Below are positions 13,943-63,521 of a DNA stretch of 64,000 nt, one piece after another. The translations under genes and the position numbers were made by a program. Position 1 is the stretch's first letter. Every line of letters starts with the position of its first letter. Below the pieces are notes generated by a model, which was not told where the DNA came from, made no database searches, and saw only the letters and a program-made list of their open reading frames with translations. The stretch spans positions 558,001 through 622,000 of the forward strand of contig AP026143.1 in NCBI GenBank assembly GCA_030295235.1, in the 5' to 3' direction. Source of the stretch: Fistulifera solaris (Eukaryota).

Positions 13943-14198
13943 GATACAGTAAGATCTCGTCTTCAGGCCACAACTGAGTCGATAATCAATCAATACTTTG
14001 AATTTTTTATTCGAAAGGGCAACAACATTTTCATCGTCGTCGTCAAAAATAAAAATCATCATCGAGATATCGCAATACCGGTACGAATGTATTTTATTTT
14101 ACACCTTCGTTGCTACCAGGTATGGATCGTGCTTGTCTCTAGCTAACTCAAACAGAGAAAAAAGTTTTGCACTAGCTATCAATTTAAATTACAGTTAA

Positions 14199-15091
14199 CT
14201 AAGTCACTAGTCCAAGAATACCGGCCGTCATCAAGGCTGCCGATATAGAGAGCAATACCATTTTCATCGGCGACCCCTCCGAAAGAGTCGCAATGTCAGA
14301 AGCGGACATGGGCCTGTTAAACCATCCAACTACCGCTATTCGCTTTTTTTGCGTGTCTAACACCTCATGAGGAATGGCATCGCTTTGAAAAATAACCAGC
14401 GTGCCCCCTTCTGGATCGACATCTTTATAGAAAGGGCTTTCGCCTGGTGGTAGCTCGTCCCCACCCGAGTCAAAATGCAATCGAAGTTGTCCTGCATCTT
14501 TGACAGAATTCCAGTCTTTATTCAGATAGAGCAGCATGGAATAAGTTCTCAGAACGGAAGCCGATCCAGGAATTGCATCACGATGACGACGGTAGAACCC
14601 TCCTTGAGGATAGTAAGCGTACAAAAGCTCCGTGAGGTCGTCATCCAAAGGTCCAAATACCCCCAAATCCGTGCGCAGACGATCCAATCGTTCATACAAC
14701 TCCTGTCGGCCGGCATGCTGTGGTAGGTCCTTTTACTTTTCCCGAGAAAACAAGTCTCCGCTACCCGGATCTTTGTATTGAGCATGTTGGTCAAGTCTTG
14801 ACCGATCTTGGCTACTTTGAAATAATTTTGAGATCGTAACTGCTCAACATCTTGACGTAGCGATTGTTGTAGCGATTCCGGTATGAATGCAGGCACTATC
14901 AAATATTTGTTTTCCTTTAGCTCTTGTAGCTGTTCCCCTGAAAGACATGGAGTCGTCGTCGCGAGTCGTTGAGTAGTCGATCGACGAACGTGCGCGATAG
15001 GTTGCGACAGCCAAGCTTTGCTTATAGTTGGGAAGAAACCAAGCAACAGGGCCGACAAGTGCAACCTTCTATCATATGACCTCGCTACCAT
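14199..15091 (-). CDS. 2OG-Fe(II) oxygenase (EGLN/prolyl-hydroxylase-like), probably plastid-targeted, C-terminal TM; frameshift near 14730
   Basis: YRRHRD, LLYLNKDW, HEVL...RIAVVGWF; signal peptide followed by KA-WL. Confidence 0.85.
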
Positions 15092-16081
15092 CGTTGTAAT
15101 AAAACGCGCATATTGCGAAGGAATTGTCATGGTCGCACAGCTTCCTGCGATCTGCAAAATCGATCGATCGGCGCACACTGGCGGCACATCCGTCCTCCGT
15201 CGGTCAATCACGAACCATTAGTCAGTCACTGACAGAGTACATTTCAGCAAATAGTCTAAAAACTTCAACGTGTTCAATTCAATCTAGACTACCTGGTACA
15301 CGTCATCAAAGGGGCAAGAATACTTTCTGAACTAACGACTCGGCCGAAACAAGAACGTTAATTGCAGAATTAATAGCTGCAATTCGTTATGCGAAGGCTA
15401 AAGTAATGAAACGATTCCGTTGTCCTAAGAAGTTTACCAAGAATGAGGTCTAAAGTGTCAAAATTCGGGAATGAACTAGGTCACCATTAACTCCCTTCCA
15501 GTATCCAAAACCATTATCTGTTCGTCTGATACTTATTGCTTTTTGATCGTGTTCAACGATGTCATATGCTAAGGTGATGTTGTCTTTCATATCTTGAGCA
15601 CTTATTTACGCCTTTACTTTGTCCTGAGGCGCTAGTCACTACTTCGAGCACTATGTGCCAACTTCACAGAGATCCGATAGAGCCTCGGAGTATTCATGGC
15701 GGAAGTCAGGTCAGCCGAAAAGGGCTATATCTACACGCAATTGCGGATCGATGAGCGCTTCTCTGCGTCACCAATTTATCCAACCCCTTTAATGAATAGC
15801 CCAGCTAATTGATGGAAGCTTTATCGCTCGCAATTCTGTTCATCCAATTTGACTTCCTCCGACATGTTAGCTTGTCGATCGTATTCCTTGCGTGGCTTGG
15901 CAGTTGTTAAAGGGAGACGTCACGATTGATCTTTTGTGATAGCCGCAGTATTCTGTTTTCATTTTCTCCTCTCGTCCAGCCAAGAACAGATTGTGTATCT
16001 TCTTTCTGTGGTTATCAACAAGCTAACAGGATCACAGATATCATCCAACAGGTTTGCGCCTGGTTTTTATTGCGTAGGGAG

Positions 16082-17119
16082 ATGAAAAACGAAAGTCCAA
16101 AACATCAAGACAATTTGCTTCCCAGCTCGTTGGATCCTTTTAATGAAAGCTGTCCGATGGCCAATGCAGCGGATGTTTTGTGCGGTAGAGGAAGGACTTC
16201 ATTCAATCACGGTAAGAGTTGTTGAGCGCGTTTTTGGGCTTTATCAATCTTGCTCACGCATCTGTTCGCGACATGTTAATTAGTTGGAAACAAACGTTTC
16301 CGAGAAAGGATCAATGCCACGATTAAGCATTACATGGAAGCACCCAATCGCTATGAAAAGTCTTTGGTGGTTCATGGTGTCGTAGAACAAATCCAAGCTT
16401 CAGGAGGTCGTTTCTTGAAACACGACGAGAAGACAGGCAGCTGGTACGAGCTTAGTAGTGCTCAAATGAAAGAGAAAGTAGGGCACGCTATCCGTGATGC
16501 TGTCAATGCCCTCGAAGCTCGGACGGAGAGGAAGCGTTTCTCTGAAACGAAGGAGGAGCGCGATCCCGTTACAACATCGCCTGCCCCCGTGGCATCGATT
16601 CGCGACAAAGGATCGCCTTTGGGTGCTAAAGGCTTCCAGCTGAATATGCCTGACCTCAATTCGATCCACATGAAGCAACATTTTCATCACCCGCCGAATC
16701 GTTCACAAAAGACTGTCTTCGAGCCGTCTCAGTCGTTGCTGTATCATCAGCAAAGTCCTTCCGAACATCAGCGGCCTTACAATTTCCCTCCTGTTCCCTA
16801 TCCGCAACGATATCACGTCGTGAATCGACCAGAGGAATTTCAACATTCGTCGTGCTTACACGACGGTGGCTATTATGATCAACACCACCCCGCATTGATC
16901 GAGCCTATCCCCTACAACCCTATTACCAGCGACTCGACAAAGACGACTGATGCTCATCAGGTTGTTCCCTCCGACGTTGGTAGAGCTACTGGTCACAGCA
17001 ATGGAGAAGTAGACGATCATCGTGTCGCCCAACCGGAGAAAGATTTCTTCTTGGAGCAAATTAATCAAGTGTTGGGTCCGATTGTTGACGACGGAGACGA
17101 TTCCTGCGTCTCCGTTTAG
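16082..17119 (+). CDS. DUF6824-domain protein
   Basis: DVLCGRG...NH|VGNKRFR across intron 16212-16283; GGRFLK...W...EKVGHAIRD. Confidence 0.85.
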
Positions 17120-17960
17120 CTCTATATCCCTCAGGATTTCATCTTAAGTGTGCTTGATATCTTTGACGATGGACCAAAATGAAAAATACTCTGGTTGACA
17201 AAGAGAGGAGGTGCTCGACTATCAAATTTGTACAACATTCATAGACTCTCCTTTTCCGTAACGCGTAGCAATCGTGTTTCTATTGGTTCTTTCATTTTGA
17301 GTTGTATTTGGGTGATGATAAGCAGCAACGCATTTATTGTTCGTTTATAGTCACAATCATAGACTTGAAATGTCAGGATGCTCGCATCACTGCAAAAATT
17401 CTCTTCATCGCATTTCGCATTGCGTCGCAATAAAAACCGACACAACGTCGCACTGAGTTTCGGCTGTAGCACAAAATGTAGATTACTTTTTTTGACGTCA
17501 CACGTGTCTGTGATTCTGTCATGAGTCCGGATTGATTCTCAGTTAGCATCTTTTGTCGTTTTAATAAATCTACTTCCTTCAGCCATTACCCGTTGACGAC
17601 AGCTCCGTGCCAGTCAATATCAAGTGCAGGATTGTTGACAATTGTTGACAAGCCAACCGTACGACCATCGTTGCTACAAACCACAAAAACGAGGATATAG
17701 CATGTGTAGCCCATGACTGAAGTCAGTCGTGACGAATCTCCGCTGGACACTACATTATTGGTTTATAGAAAATGGATCCCGATCAGATCTTTTCATGATC
17801 CGTTATTCGATTTCGATGAACAACGATGAACACGCACAAAAACGCTCATCGAAGATTTTGCGAAGCTTCGATAGAAAGAGAATCATAAACGCCACCACAT
17901 CAGTCACAACATTTCAAACCATCAAGTAGCTTATTCTTTGCATTGAAAGACGTTGAAAAC

Positions 17961-19721
17961 ATGTGCGACGAAGTCATTGAGGAAGAGAAAACATGGCGGG
18001 AGGACTACTTGACGATCCTCGTGTTAGGAGCTTCCGGGGAGTGAGTATCTTTCGGTGGACGGACGAGTTTCCATGCGAACTCTTTTCTGTTGTTTTGATT
18101 CTTGAGCACTCACTTCAGTTCACTCGTTTCATTACCTCGTTAGTTTGGCTCAAAAGAAAACTTATCCCAGCTTGATCAACTTGTACGCCTGGAAGCTATT
18201 ACCGAAGAACGTGCAAATCATCGGCTTGGCCCGTTCTGAAATGACGAACGAAGAACTTCGCGATCGACTCAAACCACATCTAGAGGACAAGAATGGGCAT
18301 TCTAAGGAAACCATCGACGACTTTCTTAACCTTTGTACTTACCAGTCAGCGCCGTCTTATGGCGACAAGGAAACATTTAAATCGATCGCCAAGAACATGG
18401 AAGAATTCGAAACGAGAACTCCAGCGAACCGGCTCTTCTACTTTGCCATTCCTCCTTCTGTCTTCTCGGAGACAGCTCTTGCTATCAAAGAAACATGCAT
18501 GCAGGAAAAAGGGAAAGGTTGGTCTCGACTCATTGTGGAAAAGCCATTTGGAAAAGACTTGCAAACGTTCGAAGAGCTTAACGAGACTTTATCGGAGCAT
18601 TTTTCCGAGGAGGATTTGTATCGAATCGATCATTATCTGGGTAAGGAGCTAGTACAGAACTTACTAATCCTACGATTTTCGAATGTCTGGTTTGAAAGGG
18701 TTTGGAATACGGACAGTATCCAGTGCGTGATTTTGACATTTAAAGAGTCGATTGGAATCGAAGGACGCGGAGGATACTTCGATGAGTATGGAATCATTCG
18801 TGACATTTTTCAGAATCATCTTTTGCAAGTTCTGGCACTTCTTGCGATGGAGCCTCCGACCATGGCAGATGGTCCTGATGCAGGAACTTTCATTCGCGAT
18901 GCGAAGGTGAAGGTTTTGCGATCGATCAAACCATTGACGATGGACGACGTGATTCTTGGACAGTACGAGGGGTATGCAGATAATTCAACGATCAAAAACA
19001 AAGACTCGAAAACTGCTACTTTCGCTGCACTTCGCTTGTTCATCAATACGCCGCGTTGGTAAGATACACAACATTGTTGATGGGGAATCCTTTCTTTATG
19101 TTCAATTCTAACGCAATCTTCTGGCTGCAATACAAAGGCACAACGTCCCAATTATTATGAAGGCGGGGAAAGCGTTGAATGAAGGCAAAGCAGAGATGCG
19201 AATTCAGTTCAAGGACGCGCCCGCGGGGCAGTTTATTTTCCAAGGACAGGCGTGTCCCAGGAACGAGCTCGGTAGGTAATATTATTGTTCTCTTCAAGCT
19301 CCGTAAAAACGTTTCTGACGCGGTTACCTGGTACACAATTGTATCTTGGTGAAACCAGTTATGCGTATGCAACCCAAAGAAGCTATTTACATGAAAACGA
19401 ATGTGAAGAGTCCCGGTTTTACGTCCACGCCTATTCAGTCGGAACTTGAGGTCAACTACGATTCTAGGTTTGAGGCCAATTGTAATCCAGATGCTTACAC
19501 GCGATTGATCCTGGATGTCATCCGAGGTCGACATTCGGCATTTGTTCGTGACGATGAACTTCGCTACGCTTGGGAGATTTTCACTCCTCTTTTGCACGAA
19601 ATTGAAAAAAAGTGGCGTGAGTCCGATAGTATATAAACAAGGATCTCGCGGACCCCCAGAGGCTGACGACTTCATCGAAAAGAAAGCTGGGTACATCCGG
19701 AATAAAGATTATAAATTTTAA
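17961..19721 (+). CDS. G6PD: Glucose-6-phosphate 1-dehydrogenase (3 introns; poly-A frameshift near 19608)
   Basis: [37 protein letters not shown]. Confidence 0.97.
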
Positions 19722-20757
19722 GATGTACTAAGGATATGAGGAAAATTCGAATTTTAAGTTACCTAGCTAGTGTTGTCAAGGTTTGCAAATATCGCCTAAC
19801 ACCTAAACACCAAGCACATGTGTCGCAGTAAATTCCAAAGACCTAATAGACCATAACCTACAGCCATCTCATCTTCAAAGACTTGATCGAAAACACCTTT
19901 GATGATAAAACCGCAACTGAGTTCAGAGACGACCATGCCCTCAATCTATTCCGAGAACTAATGAATGAGAAAGTTAGGTATCGCTGTGTACCTGGTAAGC
20001 ATCGTAAATGATAATGCACGTGCAGGTTTCGCTTCCGTGAAAAAGTCGGGTATCACACAAATCGGCTGTGAAAGCATCGACAAATCGACAGAAAGGCCGA
20101 ATGCCCAAGACAGTAAATAATGGTAAATAATGGTCTTTGGCTTTTCTGTTGGGGAAACAGATTACTCAGAGTAGAATAATGGTCATTGTTCATTGTACTG
20201 AGAACTGTGACATATGTCCTAAAACCTACAGATTGTATAGACTAAATATACTTGATACTAGTAAGTACAGTGGTAGTTGATAGTGGAATTACGATTTACT
20301 TGGCCCTAATTTCTGTACCACTTTATACTTTATACTTGTACTTTGTACTTTGTACGGAGTATTGAGTATTGAGTATTGATTGGTTACTGTCACTGTTCTT
20401 AGTTCTTTATTTCTTAATGCCGTTGTGTCTTGTCCCTGCCAGAAATCAAACAGAGATAACAGTATTCCTATTGTGTACAAATGCTGTTGTTATCGAAAAT
20501 GACATTGAAGAAGAATGCGGAGAGTGCGAACGGGCCAGGCGCAAAATACTATCTATACTTATAGTTAACTAGTCAATGACCAGTGACTGAGTACGTTTTC
20601 AAACCGTCCCATCTTTCATCTTGTCATGCCCCTTTTCGTCCTCCTTCGTGCCTTGTTGTGCCTCACGCCTCACAACGCGAGAAGTGTTGATGTGCATTCA
20701 TCGACATACCTTTACAAACCCCTCTTTCCATTTACCCACAATTGAAGCGGAGTAGCT

Positions 20758-22218: not shown

Positions 22219-22517
22219 TAAGAAGGAGCAAGTCACGTGTGTGACCCTTCAGCTAGAGAACGAGCGCCCATTCTGTACAAGGTGCTCTCACATTTTGATT
22301 TTAACTGCTTGCGCTAAATGGAAGCTAATTAGTAACCCAGCGTTAAAGCGTTTTGACGTCCCATTTTCACCGGAAACTTTCATAGACAATGATTCTCATA
22401 AAAAAATTCAAATTTGTTTCCTTCTTAGCCACCAACTTTTATGAGACACTAAATTCTTTTAAACTATTGAGCATCAAATATTGGAAATCCACGAATTTTT
22501 TGTCAGCTCATTCTGAA

Positions 22518-23624: not shown

Positions 23625-24826
23625 GGCAGTTGAACCATGCTGGTGGACCTTTTTGGACCGTACGTCGTCGGACTTACTTAGAAAGAAGACATACCAAAGC
23701 GACATACTATCCAAAAAACTTTTTGGATCCAGCCAATCAGATGGCTTCGATCCAAAAAGTCGAGCGAGTCGGCCAATCAAAATGCGCCATCCAAAAGCCC
23801 ACTTTTAGCCGCCTGTACGCGATCCGGGCGGGCGGGTTTCAAAATTGACGATCCATAGTCACTTTTTCGATCACCCTATTGTCGCCATAATCTGAGATCC
23901 TCGTAATCTGGAAGTAGAAATGAGGAATAAAACTAGTATATACCTTAGCATCAAAGTTAGCGCTTCAAAAAGAGTCATGGAGAGAAAGTAGCTACATCTT
24001 TGGGAAATGAGGCGATTTGCGTCCACTTTACCTCGGCGTCTCAATTGCTTCTACACTTCCGCAAAACCTCTAGTTCTGAAATAGAAAAGTGAGTATTGAT
24101 AACCATAGTCGGATGGTCTACGAATGGATTCATTTCCGCATTACGTGAAACACATTTCACGACCAAAGTCGCGGATCAGTTTGGTCCCGAAGGTGATATA
24201 ATAAAGGAGAAATGGACCAGCATTGCTAACTAATACTTTACAACATCGTTATCGCTATTATTGAGTTATAAATTATTGAAATTTAGCGGTTCTGTCACTG
24301 GAGACAAGCTGGTGACTCGTCGCAAGGAGACAGAAAACGTTGACATGAAAATTGAACAGCAGGACTGCAACACAAAGATGCCTTTTCACGCTAAAACGCT
24401 TAAATTCGGAGCATGATAGTTTTTGACATTGCCATAAAGTCACCTTTACCTGGGAACCGGCTCCCTGCGAGCATTCTCGGCGAAGTTTTCTCAGTCGACT
24501 GCAAGTTTTCGGTCGTCGGAATATCCTAAGAACCCGCAGATCGTCGCTCTTTTCCATCACCGATCGCCGTGTAACTGCTCATGAATAGTTATGGTCATCT
24601 GATGAGTGTTGTTCTGAAAAACAAGAGCTCGATTGAGGCGAAATTCGATTGGAAATGCGATTTTGTTGTCGATCGCGACGAAAAAATTTATTGAGAAAAT
24701 CTCTTTTGTGCGAACGACGAAATGCGAGATTTTATTGAGAAAGACGCCTTTCGGCGTCTGCCCATCGCTCGCTTCGCTCGCGAGCAATAAAATATCCAAA
24801 TGGTCCACCAGCATGGTTCTACTGCC
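23625..24826. mobile_element. Non-autonomous TIR DNA transposon (Merlin/IS1016-like or MULE-like)
   Basis: 25-bp TIRs GGCAGTTGAACCATGCTGGTGGACC (23625-23649) and GGTCCACCAGCATGGTTCTACTGCC (24802-24826), 1 mismatch; TSD GAAAAAAA at 23617-23624 and 24827-24834. Confidence 0.85.
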
Positions 24827-25416
24827 GAAAAAAATGTTGCGGGTGCTCGGCTCGGCTCGCTCGGTGCTGATGCCTTGTCTGCCCACCCCCGTCAGTCTCC
24901 TACCGGTACCAGTACAAATAAATTATGTCTTACTCAAAGCTCACTAGGTCTAGTCTATAGACTCCAAGTAGTGTTTTCCGTATTTCGACATGACTGGAAT
25001 TCAATCATGAATCATGAGTCAGGAAAGACTAGCATTACGTCTCAAGATAGTTTTTGATCGACTCGAAGCAGCATTTGTAACACTTTAAATACAATGCAAG
25101 ATTCGTTGCAAGTTGACAGGCTGCATTAAATAGATACGTAAGGTCCATATTGAATGACTCTGAGTTAAAATTTTTTTCTTTGGTTGCCAGGACTATATCC
25201 ATCACGGACGAATCATCATCATTAATTTCCATTGTCAATCGCATAAGGCGGCATACGTGTGTCTCCGCATCGGACGAAGGTACTTTTTGCGGCAAGAGGT
25301 CTTCTCTCTCCTCATCTGTAACGTCCTTGAAGGGTGAAATTTCGACGATGTCCCCAGAACAGATAAAGAACAACAGTTTCCGGAGAACTCTTATGTAGCC
25401 CACACAGTTCATTCAA

Positions 25417-26653: not shown

Positions 26654-26794
26654 TCTCTGGCGTTCACCAAAACTGGGGAAACGACGTTAAAATTCTGCCT
26701 CGCTGTAGGCTCCACGTAGAAACTTGTACTGAGAGGCAGAATTTTAAAGTCCTCTCCGGACTGCATTTGTGTAAAGTCACACCAGGTGTATTTC

Positions 26795-27705
26795 AATCGT
26801 ACAGAAAAGGGGCAATCCAGAAATTCTGGACCATTTTTATTTCGTTCATACAGAAAATCTGGGGTGGTCCAGAAATTCTGGACCATTTTTATTTCATTCA
26901 TACAGAAAATCTGGGGTGGTCCAGAAATTCTGGACCATTTGTATTTCATTGATACAGAAAATCTGGGGTGGTCCAAAAATTCTGGACCATTTGTATTTCA
27001 TTCATACAGAAAATCTGGGGTGGTCCAGAAAGTATTTCATTCATACAGAAATCTGGGGTGGTCCAGAAATTCTGGGGTGGTCCAGAAATTCTGGACCAGT
27101 TGCATTGTATTCATACAGAAAATCTGGGACGGTCCAGAAATTCTGGACCAGTTGCATTGCATTCATACAGAAAATCAGGGACGGCCCAGAAATTCTGGAC
27201 CACTTGCATTGCATTCATACAGAAAATCTGGGACGTTCCAGAAATTCTGGACCGTTTGCATTTCATTCATACAACAACTCGGGGGCGGTCCAGAAATCCT
27301 GGACAATTTTTATTTCATTCATACAGAAAATCTGGGGTGGTCCAAAAATTCTGGACCATTTGTATTTCATTCATACAGAAAATCTGGGGTGGTCCAGAAA
27401 GTATTTCATTCATACAGAAATCTGGGGTGGTCCAGAAATTCTGGGTGATCCAGAAATTCTGGACCATTTGTATTTCATTCATACAGAAAATCTGGGGTGG
27501 TCCAGAAATTCTGGACCATTTGTATTTCATTCATACAGAAAATCTGGGACGGTCCAGAAATTCTGGACCAGTTGCATTGCATTCATACAGAAAATCTGGG
27601 ACGTTCCAGAAATTCTGGACCGTTTGCATTTCATTCATACAACAACTCGGGGGCGGTCCAGAAATCCTGGACAATTTTTATTTCATTCATACAGAAAATC
27701 TGGGG
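26795..27705 (+). repeat. Satellite array of ~52-bp units with a palindromic core and higher-order structure
   Basis: Unit CAGAAAATCTGGGGTGGTCCAGAAATTCTGGACCATTTGTATTTCATTCATA and variants; variant block at ~27241 recurs at ~27609. Confidence 0.95.
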
Positions 27706-34616: not shown

Positions 34617-35190
34617 TCTACGGAGTATTTATAATGGGCCGATGCTGTGCGCGAACTTTTTTGTCTTTTTCGCGTTTGATTATAGTCTCATTACAATAAT
34701 ACGGAGTAGATCCAAAGCTAATTATGCTCTCACCTTGGGAATTTCGCGCAATTGCGAATTTCAGCCGGCAATGTCTTCGAGTCCTGACTTTCATGTTTTT
34801 ACTATCATTCAAACAGTTGGTTGTACCAATCCACGACTGGATTTCAGTTATGAGAGACTGCATCAATCCTTTTGTACATGCAGCTTGCAGCGCGAACTTT
34901 TTTGTCTTTTTTCGCGTTTGATCATAGTCTCATTACAATAATAGTCCCAAAGCTAGTTATGCTCTCACCTTGGAATTTCGCGCAATTGCGATTTCAGCCG
35001 GCCATGTCTTCGAGTCCTGACCTTCATGTTTTTACTATGATCCAAACAGAAGGTTGTACCAATCCACGACTGGATTTCAGTTATGAGACTGCATCAATCC
35101 TTTTTTACATGCAGCCTGCAGCGAAAAAAGCTCCCCGCAGGGGCTAGAGCTAAAGCCCTTTGGCTAGCCTGCCGCAGGCGGCTAGACTAG
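34617..35190 (+). mobile_element. Non-autonomous Helitron-like element with an internal ~241-bp tandem duplication
   Basis: 5' A|TCTA...TTTATAAT; 3' GC-rich hairpin 35164-35185 followed by CTAG|T; two copies ~34642-34885 and ~34885-35122. Confidence 0.65.
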
Positions 35191-41872: not shown

Positions 41873-44110
41873 ATTGAAGTCTCGTTTATAGAACTAAACA
41901 AAGATGATAATGGCGTTTGGACGCATTACCTGGTATTGACACCCGCCCTCTTATGCTATTGAAGCGCGTCGCAGCGCGTCATTCAAGCTAAATATTTGTT
42001 TACTGTAAGTCAGAGTGTTATTTAACTTTAACAGGACTGGATTTCAGTCATGACGTTGTAAAGAAAACGGCGTTCTGGTGCCTTCTTGTTTTGTTCCATC
42101 TATAAATGATGATTTTATTCATCAATAACATGCCCAATTAACGGTAATCGACATCGACTTGACTAGAATCCTAGAAATGAGGAAAGATGCATCGCATCAA
42201 AAGTCTACGTGTGTTTTACGTAGGCCTCGTGGGAATTTTATCGATATATAGGCACCAGACTACAGTTTTCGCTATAGTAGACAGCGAAGCCCAGAAACAA
42301 CACGATGCGATACGCGAGATGACGACGATGCTATGCTTTTTTTTTCGTTGTCGTCGTTATTGTCATCTTCGCTCATTCATAGCAATGATCATGATGATAT
42401 ATTAAATATCGTTTGATTTGTATTTCGTTTCTACGTTGCTCAAGTCATCAATCCCGGTTTCGTCGGAGACGCAAATTGGCGATCAAAAACTGGTCTCGAA
42501 AACGGAAACGGCTGAAAAGAAACGGCGCTCCGCACGACTTACTTGACAATCAACCTGTCGCATGCATCCTTCTTTCTTTCTTCTCACAAATTGCACCTTG
42601 TGTCAAATCACACACAAGGTGCGATTTGTCACTAACAGAGCAGTGAAGCTTGTCACTCGCTCACCTTGTTTCTATTTTACTTATTGCAGTCAGATATTAT
42701 AATGATCTTCGTCCGCAGGGAAGCCTCATACCGACGGGTAGTGCACGGGCCCTGCGGAGTAGCTTCCTACCACATTGGGAGCAACGAGAAATCGCGTGTG
42801 CCTTGAGCCTCCGTCCTTCTCTTGCTCTGGAGAGAGGCCGAGTGATGTGCTGAGCCCTGAGGCCTTCACCGCTCCTCGCCTCAAATTCTCTGTTTCAAGG
42901 AATGAGTGTATGTGCTGTGCCTTGGGGCCTTCACCGCTCCTCGCCTTGATTCTCTTTTTCAAAGCGCCATGGCAAAGACCATGGACAAAGTGCGGCCTGA
43001 GGGTAACTTCAGTGTTGGTACCAGCGTATGCGTGGCAGGTTGCGAAGTAAGAGGAGAGAAGCTTACTCGACACCCAAAGATGGTGTCGTGCTGGAGGAAA
43101 AGCCTCCCAGCAGAAATCCACGGTGACGACCTGGTATGTAATCACTCCGTAAAGTTGCCATGGAAATTCCACGACAGAGGAGGATGGCACCAACGGCGAC
43201 GGCCTCAAAAGAGGACCGATACGACCGATTGCGATGACCATACCTATCCCGGTGGCGTCCCCCAGATTGGCGGCCGACCCCCGCTAAAGGAGGGCCGACT
43301 GAAAACCAGCTGGAAGAGGTTAGCTCCATATTAAGGCAGCATGGTAGAAATTCCACCCGAAGGATGACCCCGGCGACAAAAGTCGACTGAGAAGGCATAC
43401 CTTGAGGTGGCGGCCCCGTGTTAGGGCCAAGTCCCAGCATCGAGAAGGCTCGCTCTACCCGACCCCAAATGGGGGTTGTTTGATTGCATAAGCATACGCG
43501 TCCCCCGTCCGACAAAGGGCGGCGCCCAAAAGAGGTGAAAAATGGACCACAAAAGTGTAAGCTCTCTTCCACACGGTCTCGGTCAAAAGACTGAGACTGC
43601 GCCAGCCAAAGCTGGCCTAAAAGATCAATCTGACGCAAAAGTAAAAGTGCAATAAACAATATAAACTAGAAACAAACAACACAAAAGACGAAGCTTATAG
43701 TCTAGGTCTAGTACACATTGTATACACGCATTTAAATTTACTGCCTTCATCCGTAGGTTGGTTCGAATCAGAACCATGGCGTGCCTCAATCGACGATCGA
43801 GAAATCTCTTATACCACAAACGTGAGCGAAGTCTACTAGGGCGTTGTTGACCGTACCTTAATGTTCTTAAACAAGAACGAAATGTAGCTCCAACTCCTGC
43901 CCTGGTTCGGTCTGCTCATCTCCGATCACAAACTCTTCGCGTCAGTTTGAACCAGGCTGCGCTCTGTCATGCAAAGTACCGTCCACCCAAAAACGAGCAA
44001 CGGAAACTATTCAGCGGGACCGTCAATACTGCTGCAATCATTTTGACTCTCTACCATCGACACGGAAATTGACGTTTCAAAATGAACGCATATCATCTAT
44101 TCGACTCATT

Positions 44111-45219: not shown

Positions 45220-45900
45220 GAAGAAGCCGGTAAAAGCCGTTTGTGCAGTTTTATTGAATGATTACCAGGTACCAGGTAGAAAAGGTGCTTTGATCTTTGA
45301 CGGGCAGCACTTGCAACGAATAATAAAAAGAGTATTGTGGTAATAATGCGCATCGCTCGCGGCATGATTCATGCTCGCGGTGCAAAATTAAAAAGTGTAC
45401 TTCCTACGTTATGGCTAAGGATAGGCGAAATCGTGCATCTCGTGGAGAAAACGGACAACACTTCGGACCATAGTAACCTTAAAATGACGATGATACACAT
45501 TGCCGGGCAACTTTGGATGTGCATGATCGCTAAACAGGTTACTCCGGAGTAATAATCGACACCATTAATAGTTTTAGCTAAGCTTAGTAGGATAACTATG
45601 TTGATCATTTTCGATGGGAAGAATACATCGCATTGCAGTTATATAAAGATAAGTTCGGCTGACGACTCATGAAAGAAGCGCTGGTCCTAAAGTGAATTCA
45701 AAATATTGCACATTCAACCAAATGATTCCTATACATTCCATTACGCAAGATTCGTTTATTTTTTTAATATTAAGTCATCCCTCTGCGAAAATACTTTTGT
45801 AGTATCTCGTACTCCAATGAATGCATCGAGATGAAGCCAAGGCAGCTGCAAGTAATTGCTTCATGTCTGGCTCTGAGTTTTGTGCTACTTCTCTTATTGT

Positions 45901-46521: not shown

Positions 46522-46734
46522 TTTTGATTGTTGGTTTGCTTTTGCCCGCACTACTAGATAAAGGGGAGGACAGCAATGTCGATTGACGATAAAGTTGATT
46601 GTATGATCTTGATAGAAGCAAGGGTAGAAGTTTAATAAATGGATCTATCACATCAATAATAACGCGGCGATGCATGGCGCCCCGCCTTGCGAAACGACAC
46701 TGGGAAGCGGGGGCGGACGTACTAGGAAATCTTG

Positions 46735-47045
46735 GCGAGTGATGTTCTCACCTATCCAGAAAATCTGAGGGATTGGTGTTATCACCTCTCCAGAAAATCT
46801 GGGAGGGTAGTGTTTTCAAGCTTCCAGAAAATCTGGGGGAGTGGTGTTTTCACTTACTACTTACTACGTATCCAGAAAATCTGGGGGATTGATGTTTTGA
46901 CGTCTCCAGAAAATCGGGACGTGTAGGGTATTCACCTCTCCAGAAAATCTGGGGGAGTGAAGTTTTCACTTACTACTTACTACGTATCCAGAAAATCAGG
47001 GAGAGTGGTGTTTTTTCGTGTCCAGAAAATCTGGGCGGGTGGTGA
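46735..47045 (+). repeat. Short degenerate satellite array with TCCAGAAAATCTGGG core
   Basis: About 8 copies at ~30-45-bp spacing. Confidence 0.85.
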
Positions 47046-52244: not shown

Positions 52245-53783
52245 ATGACCAGTAATAATCAAGACGAAAGCCCTTTATTCGAAGTCATTCCTCCTTATGA
52301 ATGCACTCCCGAGCAAGAGGCTCTCTGGGGGGAACGCGGGAAGGAAGCTTTTACCTTCAAACTGCTTCGAGAACCGTCTACATTGAAAGAATTGATCAAC
52401 TATGGCAATTGCATTGCGATTTGGCACGAAGAGCATAAGACGATGACATATGTAGCGCGATATTTTGGTGTCAGAGACCCCTTAGATGTACAAGTTCTGG
52501 ATATAAGCTTCGGTTACGCAAACGATGCTCATTTGGAATTCAAAATTGTCGGGAGAACGGAGGCGGCAGTTGCAGAAACAGCAGCGTTCTGGATCGGTTG
52601 TGAGAAAGCGGAGGAGGGCAGCGAAGACATCAAGCTTTATGGTAGTAGCGGTCACTTCGATTTTCGCAATGCTGGGTCTCATTGCTTTGTAAATATGCTG
52701 CAGATTCGCCCGTTGCGCGAGGTTGTGTTTCACCGTATGATGTTCAGTGCGGAGCAGGCTCATGTTCTCGCAACAAGGCCTTATGCAAGCAATTTGAATT
52801 TCTGGGATTGTACGTTCGAGGACGAGGGTACAGCCTTTGTAGATGGCATTCAAAGCCGTCAATCGCCGCTTGGATGCTTAGCCTTAGAATCATTTAGCAA
52901 CGTTGGAGGGCAATTCTTCAACTACGAAAATATGAGGCGATTTTGTCAAAGTTGCATGATGGAAGAGTTACTGGTCTCATCGCTGAAGGAAGAATGGGCT
53001 CTGCTACCCTTTTCTGCCAAAGCGGAAAGTCTTTTCTATATTTCGCTTTCCTCAACGTCTCTGATGGGAAATGATTTGCAATCGTTGAACATTGCGACTC
53101 CGAAGCTTAATTTGATTATAGAGCACGATGATTCGACTGTTCCGACGGAGCTGTTGACAGCTTTTCGGCGTCGTGTGGCGACATTGGGACACTTTGTGGA
53201 ATTGAGAGTTACCTGGGAGTCAAACGTTGACTCCTTTGATGTACCTGAATGTGTAATTCACGAAATTATCCAGGCAGCGCTTGCAAATCGAGATCTGAGA
53301 GTTCTTGATTTCACCGAAGATGATTTGAACATGAATCCGCACGTAGGAACTTTACTTGAAGGTCTAAAAGATCACAACAAACTCTCTACCATTAAAATGA
53401 ATGTCGACGTTGAATCGTTCGGCCACGATTATTCGCATATTCGAAAACTGATCTCACACAACAAAAACATTGTGGTAACCAGCATCCATGACTATATCTA
53501 TACAGATGGTTCAACAATTGATGACCTCTATTCGATCAATCGATTTTACCGGGGCTCTGCGGATTTGCCGTTAACGCTGCGGCCCTCTCTGGTAGCGACA
53601 GCTTTGACGGAAATAGCCTCAAACGACTTTCGGCGATCTGCTCTTCTGTTATCACAACACGTTGATGTCCTGCATGAGCTTGTTCTTTTCGCAAAGTTTG
53701 AAGAGCGTCTTAAAGACAGTGCATGTTCGCGACTGAAACGTACCATTCGAAATCAACCTAGTCGAGCTGCGAAAAAGCGCTAA
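52245..53783 (+). CDS. Unknown ~510-aa tandem family, paralogue 1 (possibly degenerate RNI-like LRR solenoid)
   Basis: Shared blocks PLLE.IP, KLLREP, AVAETA, LGHFVEL, GLKDH, LYSINRFYRGS, DFRRSALLL. Confidence 0.85.
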   Translation: MTSNNQDESPLFEVIPPYECTPEQEALWGERGKEAFTFKLLREPSTLKELINYGNCIAIWHEEHKTMTYVARYFGVRDPLDVQVLDISFGYANDAHLEFKIVGRTEAAVAETAAFWIGCEKAEEGSEDIKLYGSSGHFDFRNAGSHCFVNMLQIRPLREVVFHRMMFSAEQAHVLATRPYASNLNFWDCTFEDEGTAFVDGIQSRQSPLGCLALESFSNVGGQFFNYENMRRFCQSCMMEELLVSSLKEEWALLPFSAKAESLFYISLSSTSLMGNDLQSLNIATPKLNLIIEHDDSTVPTELLTAFRRRVATLGHFVELRVTWESNVDSFDVPECVIHEIIQAALANRDLRVLDFTEDDLNMNPHVGTLLEGLKDHNKLSTIKMNVDVESFGHDYSHIRKLISHNKNIVVTSIHDYIYTDGSTIDDLYSINRFYRGSADLPLTLRPSLVATALTEIASNDFRRSALLLSQHVDVLHELVLFAKFEERLKDSACSRLKRTIRNQPSRAAKKR

Positions 53784-56316: not shown

Positions 56317-56702
56317 AAACGAATACAGCTGGGCTCTTGGAACTTTAGATACTTGTATAACTCTGGAATATATTCATGTATTTTCGATTTACGCACAAGG
56401 TGAACTGTGCCAGTACGTGCTAATTATATAGTGTGCATTACAATTTATGACTGAGAGAAAATTCCGTCGTGAAGACATGGTGAAGGAGTATGCGCTGTAG
56501 TAGATACTTTGAAACTTAAACCATAGCTTGGTACCATAGCGACACGCTTGAAGGGATGAGCGCGGCGGCGCACCGCATTCTCATTATATTTCGATCATTC
56601 ATTCGTCATTAACAGGTATACTATACCTGGTATCCGTATAACATGTAAACGTCGTCATCGTTTGATTAAAGTTCTTAAAGAGATCAATCCTTCAGCACGA
56701 GC

Positions 56703-58256
56703 ATGTCAAGCGACAGAGAAAATGACAGCCCCTTACTTGAGCTAATACCGGCTGATCGTTGCAAGTCCCAGCAGGTAGCTCGCTGGACAGAATTTGGTCC
56801 CTCCCCGTATAAACTCCTCCGAGAGCCGAAAACGATGAAGGAATGGATCAATTACGGAAACTATCTTGGTATTGACCACGCAAATGGTACCATGTCGTAC
56901 TTGACGCGCTGTTCGTACGACCGCAGAAACCCTCTAGATGCGACACAAAGCATTCTATCATTGAGTATTCATTACGCAAGAGGCGAGATGGTGCAATTCA
57001 CCATTGTCGGCAGTACAGATAATGCAGTTGCAGAAACTGCAACATTTTGGATCACTGCTGAAAAATTACCGGACGGAAGCCACGATCTGTGTGTTTGTGG
57101 CAGAGGCGGATTTATCGGTTTTCGTGGGGCTCAAGCTCCGTGTTTGAAGCACCTGCTTCAAGTTGCCCCATCGAGGTGGGTGGAGTTCCGCAATTTGGTG
57201 TTCAATGCAGAGCAGGCAGTTACCTTGGCAACACGACCCGATCAAATAAAACTATCTTTTATGGACTGCATGTTCGAAGATGGGGGAACAGCTTTCGTCA
57301 CTGCCCTTCAGGAACGTCAATCACCGTTCGGCTTATTATCTTTTGATTCGCTTACCACTGAAGGCAAGAACTCATTAAGTGACGACAATATGAAGCTTCT
57401 TTTCCAAGTCGGCACAATAAACGAGTTACTTCTTTCACGATTGCATGGAGAACTTGCACTTCTTGCCTTTTCTGCAAAGGTGGACCACCTTGATTATACC
57501 GCTTCGTCGGCGTCGCTGCTTTCAGCAGATTTGCAGTCAGTGAACATGGCAGCAAAAAAGCTCACTGTACATATAACAAATTCTGATGAAAGCTTTTTAA
57601 CGGAAGCTTTGGTTGCCTTTTGGCGACGTGTGGCAGCGGTGGGTCACTTTGTGGAGCTGAAAATCACATGGGCGTCGGACTCTTTGGATGTACCCGAACG
57701 CGTCATACACGAAATAATCCATGCCACGCGTAACAATCCAGATCTGAAAATCCTGGCATTCGGTGAAGATGAGCTAAATTTTGAACCGCACATGGAGATT
57801 TTACTCGAAGGTCTAAAAGACCACAAAAACCTTTCCACCTTCATCATTGATGTATACAGCGAATCACTCGGCCCCGATTATTCACATCTTCGAAAGTTGA
57901 TCTCGCACAACAGAAACATTGTGGTAATCAATACCAGTGACACTATCTATACAGATGGTTCGACAATTGATGACCTTTATTCGATCAATCGATTTTACCG
58001 GGGCTCTGCGGATCTGGTTATAAAACCATTAACACTACGTGCCTCTCTGGTAGCGACAGCTTTGACGGAAATAGCCTCAAACGATTTTCGGCGCTCTGCT
58101 CTTCTGTTATCACAACATGTTGATGCCTTGCATGAATTTGTTCTCTTCGCAGATTTGGAAGAGCGTCTTGGGGACAGTGCATGTTCGCGACCGAAACGGA
58201 CCATGCGAATTCAGCCTTGTCGAGCTACGAAAAGGGCACCGAAATTCTTGACATGA
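56703..58256 (+). CDS. Unknown tandem family, paralogue 3
   Basis: Intact 517-aa ORF with the same conserved blocks. Confidence 0.85.
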   Translation: MSSDRENDSPLLELIPADRCKSQQVARWTEFGPSPYKLLREPKTMKEWINYGNYLGIDHANGTMSYLTRCSYDRRNPLDATQSILSLSIHYARGEMVQFTIVGSTDNAVAETATFWITAEKLPDGSHDLCVCGRGGFIGFRGAQAPCLKHLLQVAPSRWVEFRNLVFNAEQAVTLATRPDQIKLSFMDCMFEDGGTAFVTALQERQSPFGLLSFDSLTTEGKNSLSDDNMKLLFQVGTINELLLSRLHGELALLAFSAKVDHLDYTASSASLLSADLQSVNMAAKKLTVHITNSDESFLTEALVAFWRRVAAVGHFVELKITWASDSLDVPERVIHEIIHATRNNPDLKILAFGEDELNFEPHMEILLEGLKDHKNLSTFIIDVYSESLGPDYSHLRKLISHNRNIVVINTSDTIYTDGSTIDDLYSINRFYRGSADLVIKPLTLRASLVATALTEIASNDFRRSALLLSQHVDALHEFVLFADLEERLGDSACSRPKRTMRIQPCRATKRAPKFLT

Positions 58257-58374
58257 AAGAACAATAGCTCAGCTTTCCAGGTGGGTAATCTTCTAGCTCG
58301 CGGTTTTTTCAATACAAATGGAGTTTTTACGAAGTACAGGTATTGGCTTTCATGACTTTTTTCTGGGAATCCAT

Positions 58375-59500
58375 CAGTCTGGACCAGATTAACTTGTCCA
58401 GAATTTCTGGAACGTCCACTTTCTTTCGTCATGATCAAAACACCGATTCCAGAATTTCTGGAGCGCCCAACGTTTTCCCTCATGATCCAAAACACCGATT
58501 CCAGAATTTCTGGAACGTGCACAGCAATCCGGTAGGATAAAAAAACTGGTCCAGAATTTGTTGACCGTGCCCAGGATCACCACAGAATGTCTGTACCATC
58601 AGAAATAACTTGCTCAGATTTTCTGGAACGTGCACTTTCTTTCGTCATGATCATAACACCGATTCCAGAATTTCTGGGACACCGAACTCTCTTTCGTCAT
58701 GATCCAAAACACCGATTCCAGAATTTCTGGAACACCCAACTTTCGTTCGCTATGTTCCAAAACACCAATTCCATATGTTCTGGAACGTGCACATCATTTC
58801 GGTAGGATCGAAAAAACTGGTCCAGAATTTCTGGATCTGCACAAAATTTCTGTATGATCAGAAATAAATTGTCCAGATTTTCTGGAACGTGCACTCTCTT
58901 TTCTCTTTCGTCATGATCAAAACACCGATTTCAGAATTTCTGGAACGTGCGCAGCATTTCGGTAGGATCGAAAAACTGGTCCAAAATTTCTGGACCTCCA
59001 CAGAATTTCTGAATAACCAGAAATAAACTTGTCCAGATTTTCTGGAACACCCAACTTTCTTTCGTCATGATTCAAAACACCGATTCCAGAATTTCTGGAA
59101 CGCCCACTTTCGTTCGGTATGATCCTAAACACTTTGTCCAGATTTTCTGGAATGTGCACATCATCTCTGTAGGATCGTCCAGAATTTCTGGACCTCCACA
59201 GAATTTCTGTATGATTAAATAACGTCTCCAGATTTTCTGGAACGTGGGCTTTCTTTCGTCAGGATCAAAACACCGATTCCAGAATTTCTGGAGCGTGCAC
59301 TTTCTTTCGTCATGATTCAAAACACCGATTTCAGAATTTCTGGAACGTGCACAGCATTTCGGTAAGATCGAAAAAACTGGTCCAGAATTTCTGTAACTCC
59401 ACAGAATTTCTGTATGATTAGAATTAACTTGGAATATGCACTTTCTTTCGTCATGATCAAAGCACTGTTTCCAGAATTTTCGGAACTCCCACTTTCGTTC
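58375..59500 (-). repeat. Satellite array of ~50-bp heterogeneous units with a TTCCAGAATTTCTGGAA palindromic core
   Basis: Repeated TTCTTTCGTCATGATCAAAACACCGATTCCAGAATTTCTGGAACGTGCAC and alternating variant units. Confidence 0.92.
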
Positions 59501-59794
59501 GTTGTGATGCGAAATGCGAATGAATCACGCGATGGTTTTTTACTCATGATTGAATATCAGTCTTGGAAAAGTTACTTTACTGTTTGAATCGATAGTAGAT
59601 TTTGTGATGTATGGCCTTACCTGGTACATGTGAGCGGTAGTGCCGGTACCTGGCACTGTACGATCTATGTTTACCTTTATATGTCAGCTCGATCAGCCGG
59701 CACCTTATTGTTTATTTGTATTGCTTTTTATTTATTATTAAAATAAATCTTGAAACACTTCTTTTACGTTTTAGTTTCCTCTTTTCATTACAAA

Positions 59795-61265
59795 ATGTCA
59801 AGCGGAAGCGCGTATGCCGGTGCATTGTTGGAAGTTTTACCATGCCGTTTTCGGAAGCCCGAACAAGTACCTCGATGGCGGGATGGAGGAGAAGGGGTTA
59901 CGTACAAACTCCTTCGAGAACCGACGAGTTTGAGCGAACTGAACGACTACAAACACAATGTGGCTATTTGGCGAGACAATGACACTCTTACGTATGTAAG
60001 CCCTTCTGGCTTCTACGACTATCCGGTAGACACCGACAATTGTCTGTATCTTAATTTGGATACGTTTGGTCCGAAATTGTACATTACCGGTACAACCGAC
60101 GATGCAATTGCAGAAACGGCTGAATTTTTCCTATCTCTGGAGAATGAGCGAGGGGAAGATGGTATGCTTTTTTTACTATTTATGGGGGGAACATGCCCGT
60201 GACTTTCGCGCCGCTGGATCAAAATGCTTGGCGAAGCTATTCGAGGCAGCGCCGTTAAAGTCTGTGAATCTCAGGTGCCTGACGTTAAGTAAAAAGCAAT
60301 CCATTGTGATGGCGACAATACCTCATGCTACGGACCTGGTGTACAATAACTGCTTATTCGAAGATGTAGGTAGTACCTTTGTTGAGGCTCTTCAGACCCG
60401 CAAAGCACCGCTTGGTTCGTTGACATTTGCAAGAAGCTTAGCGGTGGATCATGAAAGTTTGCGCTCTCTGTTGACGTCTGTCAACAGCAAAACTAAAGCG
60501 TTGTGTTTACCTCTGCTGAAAAATGAACTTGCTCTTCTCCCCTTTGCTGCGAAAGTAGACCATCTCGCATATGAAATTTCTTCTTCATCGTTATCCGAAA
60601 CCCATGTTCATTCTCTGAATATTGCTACGAGCACACTGTCGCTCACAATACGCCACGAAGGCCAAACTTATCCAACGGATTCTGTGCTTAATTTCTATCG
60701 GCGGATTGCTGATTTAGGTCATTTCAAGGATCTTGAAGTCACGGTGAACAGCCCATCAGATGGGTATATGCCAGCATGCGTTGTCCAAGAAATCGTACGC
60801 GCCGCTCTTGCAAACTCTCATTTGGAACGTCTCGAGTTGGATACCACTAACGGTGATAACGAAGAGGTGGAATGGGACCCGCATGTATCGACACTTTTGC
60901 AGGGTCTCAAAGATCATCCAGGGCTTCGTTATTTAACTATTTGTGTTGAGGACCACGAAGAAGCTTTCGGTCCGGATTACTGTTATCTTCGAAAGTTCCT
61001 CTCGCACAACAGAAATATTACAGTTTTGGACCAATATTCAGATTCTTTTAAGCACCAATCAGAGATTGAGGAGCTTTACTCATTAAATCGCTTCTACATG
61101 GGATCCGCGAATCTACTGGTTGCGCCAACGTCAGAACGACTTTCTCTGGTAGTGAATGCGCTGTTAGAAAGAGCCTCAAACGACTTTCAACGCTCGTCTC
61201 TTCTTTTGTCGAATCATATTGATCTACTTTGTGAGCAAGTTGAATATGATTTGCGCGACGATTAA
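59795..61265 (+). CDS. Unknown tandem family, paralogue 4 (frameshift in T/G runs near 60170-60190)
   Basis: ORFs 59750-60202 and 60066-61265 together give the full family architecture. Confidence 0.75.
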
Positions 61266-61334
61266 AATAGCCCTTTAGTAGTAGCGAATCGCGGCAGCGA
61301 TCAAAAACACAGACAGGGGATTTAGTCAGTCCGT

Positions 61335-61506
61335 TCATTCTAATGCCGATTTATGATGGGATGAATCATTCGAACAGGCATCATTTGCTTCAGACTTCAA
61401 CCTGTCGAAGAGAGCGTCGCTCATTCTAATGCCGATTTATGATGGGATGAATCATTCGAACAGACATCATTTGCTTCAGACTTCAACCTGTCGAAGAGAG
61501 CGTCGC
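61335..61506. repeat. Near-perfect 86-bp direct tandem duplication
   Basis: TCATTCTAATGCCG...GAGAGCGTCGC at 61335 and 61421, one mismatch seen. Confidence 0.95.
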
Positions 61507-61952
61507 GATCATTAGCACCGGGAGGTACATCATTCTATTATCAAGGTATAAGTTGCACATGCTAGAGTGTTCACGCTCACATTCTTCCGTTTCGGAGTGT
61601 AATTTCACGACCCTTTTCAACATAAGTTTCTTCTTCGTTAGAATGAAGTACAACTGTAACCCATGCTTATCAATGCTAATCCAAGCGATCACTTCTTTGC
61701 GTGAGTCGAGAACGAAAGCCTCTCACAACGATGCAACATAGCTTAAGTTGACATAATAACAGAGGTCGATGTTTTCCGGGACTGCTACAATTGGGTCGGA
61801 AAATGCGTGTCCCGAACCTTATTATTTTTTTTGTTTGTTTTCGGGGTGCAATTTTGTCGTTGACGAAAAGAAGCAAAAAGAGCAATAAATTTTTGTCATT
61901 GAGAAAAGACATATTCATTCTTTATTGCTTCTTATTAGGGAATGTAACAGAC

Positions 61953-63521
61953 ATGAACCAGGAGGGCCCTCTGTTGGAGACAATTCCGCCCTCTCTTTGC
62001 AAGCCGGAGCAAGTGGCTCACTGGGAGAAGGGAGAAAAGTCACATACGTACCAGGTACAAGCTACTCAGAGATCCGATCAATCTGGAAGAGCTGAACAAG
62101 CTTGACCACGCAATAGCAATTTGGCGAGAAAACGAGACGCTCACGTATGTCGTACCCGATGATTTATATGCATATCCCGACTCTTAGGGAAAGCAACTAT
62201 TGATGGTGTCTTTCAACAAGGGCCCTCGCTTCCAAATCATGGGCGAGTCAGAGGATGCCGTTGCACAAACGGCGGCATACTTTATAAATGTGGAAGGGCC
62301 GACGGAAGAAAATCACGATCTTTTTATAAGAACTCGCCTCGGTGAATCCCAGTATCGCGACTTTGATTTTCGAGGAGCAGGCACTCAGTGTATAATACAT
62401 GCATTGGGTGTATCTCCTTCACGTTGCATTCGCTTTCAGGAAATTTTTTTGAGTGCCGAGCAATCGATCGTCCTGGCGACAAGGGCTCACCCGATACGCT
62501 TGAAGCTTGATTGGTGTCTGTTTGACGACAGAGGCACTGCTTTTGTGAATGCGCTCGCCAAGCGACAAACACCGTTTGGTTCGTTAAAATTTCAATACAA
62601 GCCGCCAATAGATGAAGGGAATCTAGAACGTCTTTTGCGAGTGGACGTGATCAATGAGTTAAAGTTATCTTTGCTGGGCGATGAAGTCGGAATGTTTCCA
62701 TTTTCTGCAAAAGTTGATCATCTCGACTATGATGTTTCCACGACATTGCTCATGAAAACGGATTTTCAATCTCAGAACATTGTGACCGATAAACTCACTG
62801 TCACAATCTACAATTCGAATTATAGTGAAAGCGACAATTTTCCAACTGAATCTGTGCTTAATTTCTTTCGGCGCGTGGCTGACTTGGGTCATTCTGTTGA
62901 GTTGAGCGTTGCAGTATGTCGTGTCAGTGGGGATGTCCCGAATTGTATCGTACATGAAATCATCCGCGCCGTCATTGCGAATCGCCGTCTACGAACTTTC
63001 GAGCTGTACGCCGGCGACGGTAATCTGGATTGGTCTCCTCATGCGAAGACAATTTTAGATGGTCTGAAAGACCACCAAGGCTTTTAACCTTCAAAACAGA
63101 TATCTTGGATGAAATCTAGGAATCTGATGGGTTTTCCTACATTCGGCAGTTGCTGTCACAGAACAGAAATATCACAGTAATGGATTTAAATGGAGAGATT
63201 TGTTCAGACGGGTCGTCGATTGATGCGCTATACTCCTTAAACCGGTTCTACCGAGGCTCGATGGATCTAGCGGTGAAGCCGTCATCGGAACGACCGTCAT
63301 TTGTAACAAGAGCTATAATGGAAACTGCATCGGGCGATTTTCAGCGCTCCGCTCTCTTGCTCTCAAATCACTCTGATGTTTTACATGAACTTGTTCAGTT
63401 CGCACAGTTAGGTGAACTTCAAGGAGATAACGCTTGTTCGGAATCGGTTCTAGACAGCAATTTGAAACGGAAAACAAGCGTTAAGTCACCAGCTGCGAAG
63501 AAAGCACGTCGAGCCTTTTAG
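61953..63521 (+). pseudogene. Unknown tandem family, paralogue 5, pseudogenised
   Basis: 7-bp insertion at 62051-62057, in-frame TAG at 62185 and 63117, frameshift near 63085. Confidence 0.85.

Follow-up and report, generated by a model that had tools for sequence, protein, structure and literature searches.

What could have placed so many exact copies of one nine-base word in a single part of a diatom genome? The word TACCWGGTA, in which W stands for A or T, recurs throughout the 64,000-nt stretch of the Fistulifera solaris assembly that was analyzed here (contig AP026143.1, positions 558,001 to 622,000 of the forward strand; hereafter the window, whose first letter is position 1). There it has 10 matches at 9 loci, which corresponds to a density of approximately 1 per 7 kb. 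The original prediction took these copies for 7-bp insertion scars at TA sites, and all of the positions that it listed are correct: 14114, 15290, 19325, 19989, 41927, 45263 together with an overlapping match at 45270, 56624, 59618, and 62049. Our preferred explanation, which we hold with moderate confidence, is that TACCWGGTA is the scar of a TA-targeting cut-and-paste DNA transposon resembling Tc1/mariner/pogo elements in its behaviour.

The abundance of the word greatly exceeds what the composition of the DNA would give, in agreement with the enrichment over background that had been claimed for it. The expected number of matches is 0.15 according to 100 dinucleotide shuffles, none of which reached 10 (the maximum was 2), and 0.15, 0.23, and 0.85 under Markov models of order 1, 3, and 5, respectively, with 40 simulations per order. 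When the tandem arrays of the window are masked, TACCWGGTA becomes the most frequent of all 9-mers, with 10 occurrences against 8 for the runner-up. The individual copies, with two neighbouring words that touch or closely precede them, are the following (ORF, open reading frame; LRR, leucine-rich repeat; P3, P4, and P5 are members of a tandem LRR family introduced below):

14114..14122, no strand: intergenic TACCAGGTA copy, 52 bp upstream of where ORF 13772-14062 (-) starts (ATG) and 77 bp downstream of the stop codon of a 2OG-oxygenase gene
15290..15298, no strand: TACCTGGTA copy, ~160 bp upstream of the ATG of the 2OG-Fe(II) oxygenase gene (-)
15285-15291: TAGACTA, which shares a TA with the first TA of the 15290 copy and forms with it the compound word TAGACTACCTGGTA
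19325..19333, no strand: TACCTGGTA copy, inside the 87-nt GT..AG intron 19271-19357 of the G6PD gene (+)
19989..19997, no strand: TACCTGGTA copy, intergenic, ~240 bp past the poly-A site of G6PD and ahead of the HA-domain gene, 761 bp upstream of its ATG
41927..41935, no strand: TACCTGGTA copy ahead of a MatE transporter gene (-), 55 bp upstream of its ATG
45263..45278, no strand: doubled copy TACCAGGTACCAGGTA, two units with a common TA, ahead of a SpoU-type methylase gene (-), 44 bp upstream of its ATG
56610-56618: one-mismatch copy TAACAGGTA, 5 nt before the 56624 copy
56624..56632, no strand: TACCTGGTA copy ahead of LRR-family gene P3 (+), 71 bp upstream of its ATG
59618..59626, no strand: TACCTGGTA copy ahead of LRR-family gene P4 (+), 169 bp upstream of its ATG (59795)
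62049..62057, strand +: TACCAGGTA copy, in exon 1 of LRR-family member P5, 96 nt past the ATG at 61953

Another one-mismatch copy, TACCTGGCA, lies at 59647, 20 nt past the 59618 copy, within the near-palindrome GTGCCGGTACCTGGCAC.

Every one of the 10 copies reads TA-CCWGG-TA, and the flanks outside the nine bases are otherwise unrelated. The centre base is A or T in all 10, and the corresponding words with C or G at the centre have no match; nevertheless, we rejected the W centre as independent evidence of mismatch repair, since it follows from reading both strands, an A on one being a T on the other, and thus carries little weight. One-mismatch variants of the word stay near background, with 8 seen against 4.5-12 in the Markov simulations and ~5.2 in the shuffles; sites with at most one mismatch, including the 10 exact copies, number 18 against 5.4 expected. 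TACCWGGTA is thus an all-or-nothing word, the copies of which are either very young or made ready-formed, unlike those of a degenerate binding site. No common extension was found at the six half-sites outside the full sites, and no convincing co-occurring motif was found within 100 bp of the TACCWGGTA sites.

Whether the word arises by insertion can be judged best at 62049, where it lies within a gene family with several members in the window. This tandem family of five, located at the right window end, consists of diatom-specific RNI-like LRR genes, for which the nearest Atlas cluster is from Bacillariophyta with LRR folds; no Pfam match was found for the family, and two of its database relatives belong to 90%-identity clusters with F. 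solaris proteins. Its members are arranged as follows:

52260-53783: LRR paralog P1
54745-56316: LRR paralog P2
56703-58256, strand +: LRR paralog P3
59795-61265, strand +: LRR paralog P4
61953-63087, strand +: LRR paralog P5, pseudogene, frameshifted by 7 bp at 62049 and interrupted by an in-frame TAG (62185-62187) in a conserved block

In P5, 7 extra bases at 62049 split a Tyr codon (TAC) and shift the conserved KLLRDP... block to the +1 frame. The peptide blocks that flank this site match P1, P2, and P3 (both blocks) and P4 (the downstream block) in one continuous frame, and in P1 the two blocks are one codon apart. The translations of P1, P3, and P4 carry the conserved stretch ...T/P-Y/F-KLLR-E/D-P..., whereas the frame of P5 changes exactly at its TACCWGGTA copy. 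In the DNA alignment, P5 is longer between the two conserved blocks than P4, P3, P2, and P1 by 7, 10, 4, and 4 nt, respectively, each of these differences being equal to 1 modulo 3. At positions 59900..59907 (+), P4 reads ACGTACAA (codons Thr-Tyr-Lys), whereas P5 reads ACGTA+CCAGGTA+CAA at the same place; the P4 word therefore looks like an empty site, having the same 8 bases as P5 minus the 7-bp insert. The F. solaris protein P0128 likewise has both blocks contiguous in one frame with a single Tyr between them, and the reading frame of P5 is restored only without the 7 nt. Because the DNA and peptides of the paralogs and the P0128 protein all run through contiguously, the alignments identify the site at 62049 as an insertion of 7 bases at the TA of a Tyr codon, and a comparison with an empty TA, here in a paralog instead of the homeologue or sister species that the original prediction had suggested, gives a clean 7-bp difference between P5 and P4, which has a single TA. 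Since P5 carries an in-frame TAG in addition to the 7-bp frameshift, and its database gene model (P0121) begins only at a Met past both lesions, P5 is a pseudogene, the only place at which coding DNA could retain a scar that shifts the frame. A change of frame is also seen in P4, within a T7/G7 homopolymer stretch at 60170-60200, and may be either a real lesion or a sequencing error.

The placement of the other copies was analyzed using an approximate coding map, in which 65% of the window is coding and gene starts are ORF-based estimates; therefore, the P values for placement are rough. On this map, 9 of the 10 copies are noncoding, compared with 44% of all TAs (P=0.004), and 7 of the 9 loci fall within -200..+100 of an approximate gene start, compared with 27% of noncoding TAs (P=0.002). 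Seven of the ~29 gene starts in the window have a TACCWGGTA in this interval. It had been claimed that the word never lies in an intact coding exon, and this is borne out: apart from the frameshifted exon of the pseudogene P5 at 62049, the copy at 19325 is in an RNA-supported intron, and the remaining seven loci are outside the coding map. The intron interrupts the G6PD gene (Pfam G6PD_N / G6PD_C), the RNA contigs of which join 19270>19358 in contig set X4 and 19269>19361 in set X3, with poly-A ends at 19745/19751. The noncoding placement fits a 7-bp insert that would cause frameshifts.

The same placement could be expected of a functional palindromic cis-element, for instance one bound by a dimeric factor or belonging to the core promoter, that is kept exact by selection near transcription starts and the abundance of which reflects its function, however the copies arose. 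Such an element would agree with the location of 7 of the 9 loci near gene starts, with the near-palindromic form of the word and the intactness of all copies, as well as with its publication as a promoter motif of F. solaris, in a study where another motif, TABASTA, is reported to be tied to higher expression of the homoeolog carrying it (PMC5935921). However, a binding site under selection should be surrounded by a halo of one-mismatch variants, which is absent; moreover, one copy lies in an intron, another frameshifts a coding exon, and the centre base has no consistent orientation with respect to the gene. Within the LRR family the offset from the ATG differs from gene to gene (-71 in P3, -169 in P4, and +96 in P5), and P1 and P2 have no copy. 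In addition, the reported bias between the two young subgenomes, with P ~1e-95 (PMC5935921), would be hard to generate via point mutation. We regard selection for a cis-regulatory role as a rather unlikely explanation of these copies.

Words of the CCWGG type are trouble spots for some base-callers in methylating bacteria, and an assembly, polishing, or sequencing artefact could in principle write CCWGGTA into a consensus. We compared four of the TACCWGGTA sites with contigs from other data sets, of which X2 is an independent wetland metagenome, whereas X3 and X4 behaved as RNA. Contigs of X1 span 15290 and 19989 with no differing letters, and a contig of X2 spans 19989 with a length difference of just 1 nt, so that two independent assemblies agree with the window; in the RNA contigs, 19325 is spliced out with a normal intron; and the same word occurs in the assembly of another group (PMC5935921). 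As far as could be seen, TACCWGGTA is not an assembly artefact, and we consider an origin of this kind very improbable. Between 5000 and 24999, both X1 and X2 contain the 99+% form of the region and, in addition, a second form at 90-95% identity, and RNA contigs exist for both forms of G6PD. This second form fits homoeologs or very divergent alleles, as in a highly heterozygous or allodiploid genome. Two metagenome scans for empty-site comparators, with the 2OG-oxygenase ORF and a G6PD exon, yielded no relative.

The proposed transposon origin of the scar would involve the following steps. The element would insert at a TA and duplicate it. Upon excision, the transposase would cut a few bases inside each end, so that each flank would retain its TA, with the element's terminal bases protruding as a 3' overhang. 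Two CCAGG overhangs could then pair at C:G, C:G, G:C, and G:C around one central A.A mismatch, and repair would seal the site as TA-CC(A/T)GG-TA, so that on balance 7 bp would be gained. The parent element predicted from these steps would have the form TA/CCAGG...CCTGG/TA, where the slashes mark its ends, and a non-standard cleavage stagger of ~5 nt; the combination of a 3-nt with a 2-nt join would be a less tidy option. Many rounds of insertion and excision, biased to gene 5' ends, would lead to about one scar per 7 kb, while selection would remove scars from coding DNA, except in a dispensable gene such as P5. The TAs of an existing scar could be hit again, and a second hit of this type is a plausible origin of the doubled copy at 45263-45278, the alternative being slippage of the 7-bp unit. 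We also considered hairpin (P-nucleotide) footprints of the hAT type and rejected them by inference, because such footprints would copy the variable flanks rather than a constant core.

The same word has been described upstream of F. solaris genes. In a study of homoeolog expression in this allodiploid diatom, motif discovery was performed in the 500 bp upstream of genes (PMC5935921). Among the rows listed in Table S4 of that study, the motifs termed Fso_l biased include MCCTGGTA (6.9e-99), CCWGGTA (3.7e-95), ACCTGGTA (7.4e-95), and CWGGTAS (3.3e-94), and these four CCWGGTA-type words are by far the strongest, the next Fso_l row having 2e-23; the motifs termed Fso_h biased include TABASTA (4e-28), GTARTCTA (8e-23), and TABAGTA (PMC5935921). 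In its available text, the paper treats the CCWGGTA-type words as possible promoter/enhancer motifs and offers no origin for them, and the two occurrences of 'transpos' in the main text are both unrelated to the motifs (PMC5935921). The Fso_l-biased motifs contain the same word as that found inside TACCWGGTA and are likewise located upstream of genes, but they were published, as far as the available part of the paper goes, without TA flanks and without evidence of insertion (PMC5935921). Point mutation would hardly generate an exact and abundant word that is mostly restricted to a single one of two young subgenomes, and a lineage-specific insertion process would do so easily. The 7-bp scars probably explain this published, unexplained subgenome-specific promoter motif. 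In literature searches by motif string, the 9-mers appeared only as incidental strings in unrelated papers, and the 7- and 8-mers appeared in no relevant main text; nothing specific was retrieved on mariner elements in diatoms, on footprints, or on core promoters.

The window contains a second TA-flanked word, TAGWCTA, which occurs 12 times against 3.3 expected, with none of 100 shuffles reaching 12. Its copies are located at 654, 784, 4198, 5932, 5937, 11567, 15252, 15285, 20238, 24951, 35183, and 43698; they are noncoding in 11 of 12 cases, and their flanks are unrelated. Among the 64 words of the type xyz-W-z'y'x', TAGWCTA ranks second by enrichment, and the first-ranked word stems from a tandem array. 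The layout of TA, a 3-nt core with A/T at its centre, and another TA is that of classic Tc1/mariner footprints. TAGWCTA thus looks like the 3-nt-core footprint of another TA-targeting element, to judge from its counts and form, with a retained core of 3 nt, as for Sleeping Beauty and mariner, whereas the core of TACCWGGTA is 5 nt. Compound sites with common TAs are found at 5932 (TAGACTAGTCTA), near 24945 (TAGGTCTAGTCTATAGACT), at 43698 (TAGTCTAGGTCTAGTA), at 4198 (TAGACTACAGTA), and at 15285 (the compound word listed above). Each of the two motif families has one overlapping pair with a common TA, 45263/45270 for TACCWGGTA and 5932/5937 for TAGWCTA, as is expected if scars may be hit again. 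TAGWCTA corresponds to the Fso_h-biased motifs TABASTA and GTARTCTA of the published list (PMC5935921, as far as its listed rows go). In the window, TABASTA occurs 37 times against 17.8 expected and GTARTCTA 6 times against 1.9, and both of these excesses are driven by TAGWCTA.

Several observations weigh against an origin of TACCWGGTA by transposon excision. No TA-flanked element with terminal inverted repeats (TIRs) starting with CCAGG or CCTGG was found in the 64 kb, and no transposase family matched any of the 82 ORF translations of the window in Pfam. The footprint claim made in the original prediction is thus supported in part: the stereotyped 7-bp gain at TA is directly shown at 62049, receives indirect support from the exactness of all copies and from the strong published subgenome bias of the word, and has good support overall, while the parent element and the transposase that were to accompany it were absent from the window. 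The insertion is directly demonstrated at 1 of the 9 loci, 62049, where the comparators are paralogs and an F. solaris protein rather than an allele, and none of the 12 listed indel rows (of 33) has a 7-bp presence/absence difference at the four sites compared. The superfamily has reported staggers of 2 to 4 nt (Tc1/Tc3, mariner/Sleeping Beauty, Minos). The Sleeping Beauty and mariner transposases, according to the available part of the source, nick three bases inside the element and leave 3-nt 3' overhangs on the donor flanks, and end joining then gives footprints identical to these overhangs (PMC7827188), whereas the TACCWGGTA core has 5 nt. All 10 cores are identical, although end-joining footprints are usually mixed. 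Among the footprint variants that would be expected, TACCATGGTA and longer blunt-join forms have no occurrence in the window, and TACCGGTA occurs at three loci (14076, 24901, and 60085) against ~0.6 expected, which is unconvincing. The 5' bias of the copies would be predicted by selection for a regulatory role as well, and the evidence for subgenome bias consists of supplementary table rows that, in the part available, have no counts for CCWGGTA (PMC5935921).

The three TACCGGTA loci share a C as the next base, which may be compared with the published motif CGGTACY. Since the 60085 copy belongs to ordinary coding sequence that aligns with the LRR paralogs, we did not take TACCGGTA for a shorter footprint, and its excess may be due to chance.

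Some of these points would be met by a stereotyped 7-bp insertion at TA that proceeds by another route than transposon excision, such as TA-specific nuclease breaks repaired with a fixed filler, or aborted integration leaving the tips of an element. In this case, the insertion would be real at 62049 and all copies would be identical, as observed, while a parent element and a transposase would not be required in the window, and a 5-nt core would not have to agree with the 3-nt overhangs of Sleeping Beauty and mariner (PMC7827188). On the other hand, the TA-core-TA layout, the presence of TAGWCTA with its 3-nt core, and the compound sites with common TAs all match the logic of footprints. Within the literature searches made here, we know of no such process, and we consider this route unlikely.

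Returning to transposon excision, we infer excision as the source of the word, the terminal sequence and the stagger of the element, and a burst of activity in one lineage. Extending this explanation to the whole genome, we tentatively propose, as a possibility that we hold to be less than even, that a TA-targeting family with a ~5-nt stagger was excised thousands of times in one progenitor of F. solaris, leaving an identical 7-bp scar each time and chiefly near gene 5' ends; that its scars, rather than evolved binding sites, constitute the strongest promoter difference between the subgenomes and contribute to the homoeolog expression bias; and that the family behind TAGWCTA, with its 3-nt core, acted likewise in the other lineage. 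If the copies are indeed excision scars, they would provide a mechanistic origin for the most subgenome-biased promoter motif of an allopolyploid oil-producing diatom, and could serve as precise, datable markers that assign DNA to a progenitor. They would also imply that, in a compact genome, the 5' regions of a considerable fraction of genes can be remodelled by footprints and not by elements alone.

The remaining content of the window is that of gene-dense eukaryotic DNA with ~46% GC, in which no tRNA genes were found. The Pfam families detected include a response regulator, RRM, G6PD, proline dehydrogenase, MatE, SpoU methylase, peptidases, and the HA-domain protein; the proline dehydrogenase has its best relatives among diatom or ochrophyte proteins. 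The sole clear TIR element of the window is a 1202-bp element at 23625-24826, which has 29-nt TIRs (GGCAGTTGAACCATGCTGGTGGACC...) and an 8-bp direct duplication (GAAAAAAA). Its ends read GGCAGT..., unlike the CCAGG predicted for the parent of TACCWGGTA, and from its duplication length we take it to be hAT-like. This element is an insertion polymorphism of a non-autonomous DNA transposon, because 23616 and 24827 are joined in an X2 contig, with 8 letters in common, and there is no X2 depth inside the element.

Three tandem arrays, located at 26787-27705, 46727-47040, and 58397-59419, have periods of 52, 34/116, and ~52 nt, respectively, and are built on the palindromes CCAGAAATTCTGG / CCAGAAAATCTGGGG; the k-mer statistics of the window are dominated by these arrays, which also give rise to false ORFs in three frames. 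The published Fso_h-biased motifs also include the word AKTTTCTG (PMC5935921). A large inverted duplication at 4717-5908 and 6377-7573, with arms of up to 835 nt at 96% identity, carries two head-to-head DUF305 genes, and an X2 joint between opposite strands, 5691>6516, falls at this duplication. Finally, two-copy tandem duplications are found in intergenic DNA at 34649-35123 (233 nt, 90%) and 61335-61506 (86 nt, 98%).

Among known systems, TACCWGGTA can be compared with the footprints of Tc1/mariner elements, including Sleeping Beauty. Both types of site have TA on both sides and a short constant core, which in Sleeping Beauty and Tc1/mariner comes from the tips of the element; the Sleeping Beauty footprint also has a central A/T position, and its core arises from the joined 3' overhangs of the donor flanks, as described in the available part of the source (PMC7827188). 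The core here differs in having 5 nt rather than 3, in being identical in 10 of 10 copies, and in recurring at about one per 7 kb as the commonest 9-mer. Thus, TA-flanked excision footprints of Tc1/mariner elements are known, and a footprint with a 5-nt core that is the commonest 9-mer of a window would be new. The Stowaway MITEs (transposable elements of the miniature inverted-repeat type) and mariner-like elements of plants are also TA-targeting, non-autonomous, and situated near genes, and their excision leaves a duplicated TA and a few end bases (PMC4561436, in its available part); the elements themselves are abundant in plants, whereas in the window only the putative scars are seen. A parallel at the level of subgenomes is provided by Xenopus laevis, in which relics of elements that were active in one progenitor mark one subgenome, as noted in the discussion of the F. 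solaris study (PMC5935921, available part). The relics in Xenopus are the elements themselves, whereas the marker in F. solaris would be a 7-bp excision scar.

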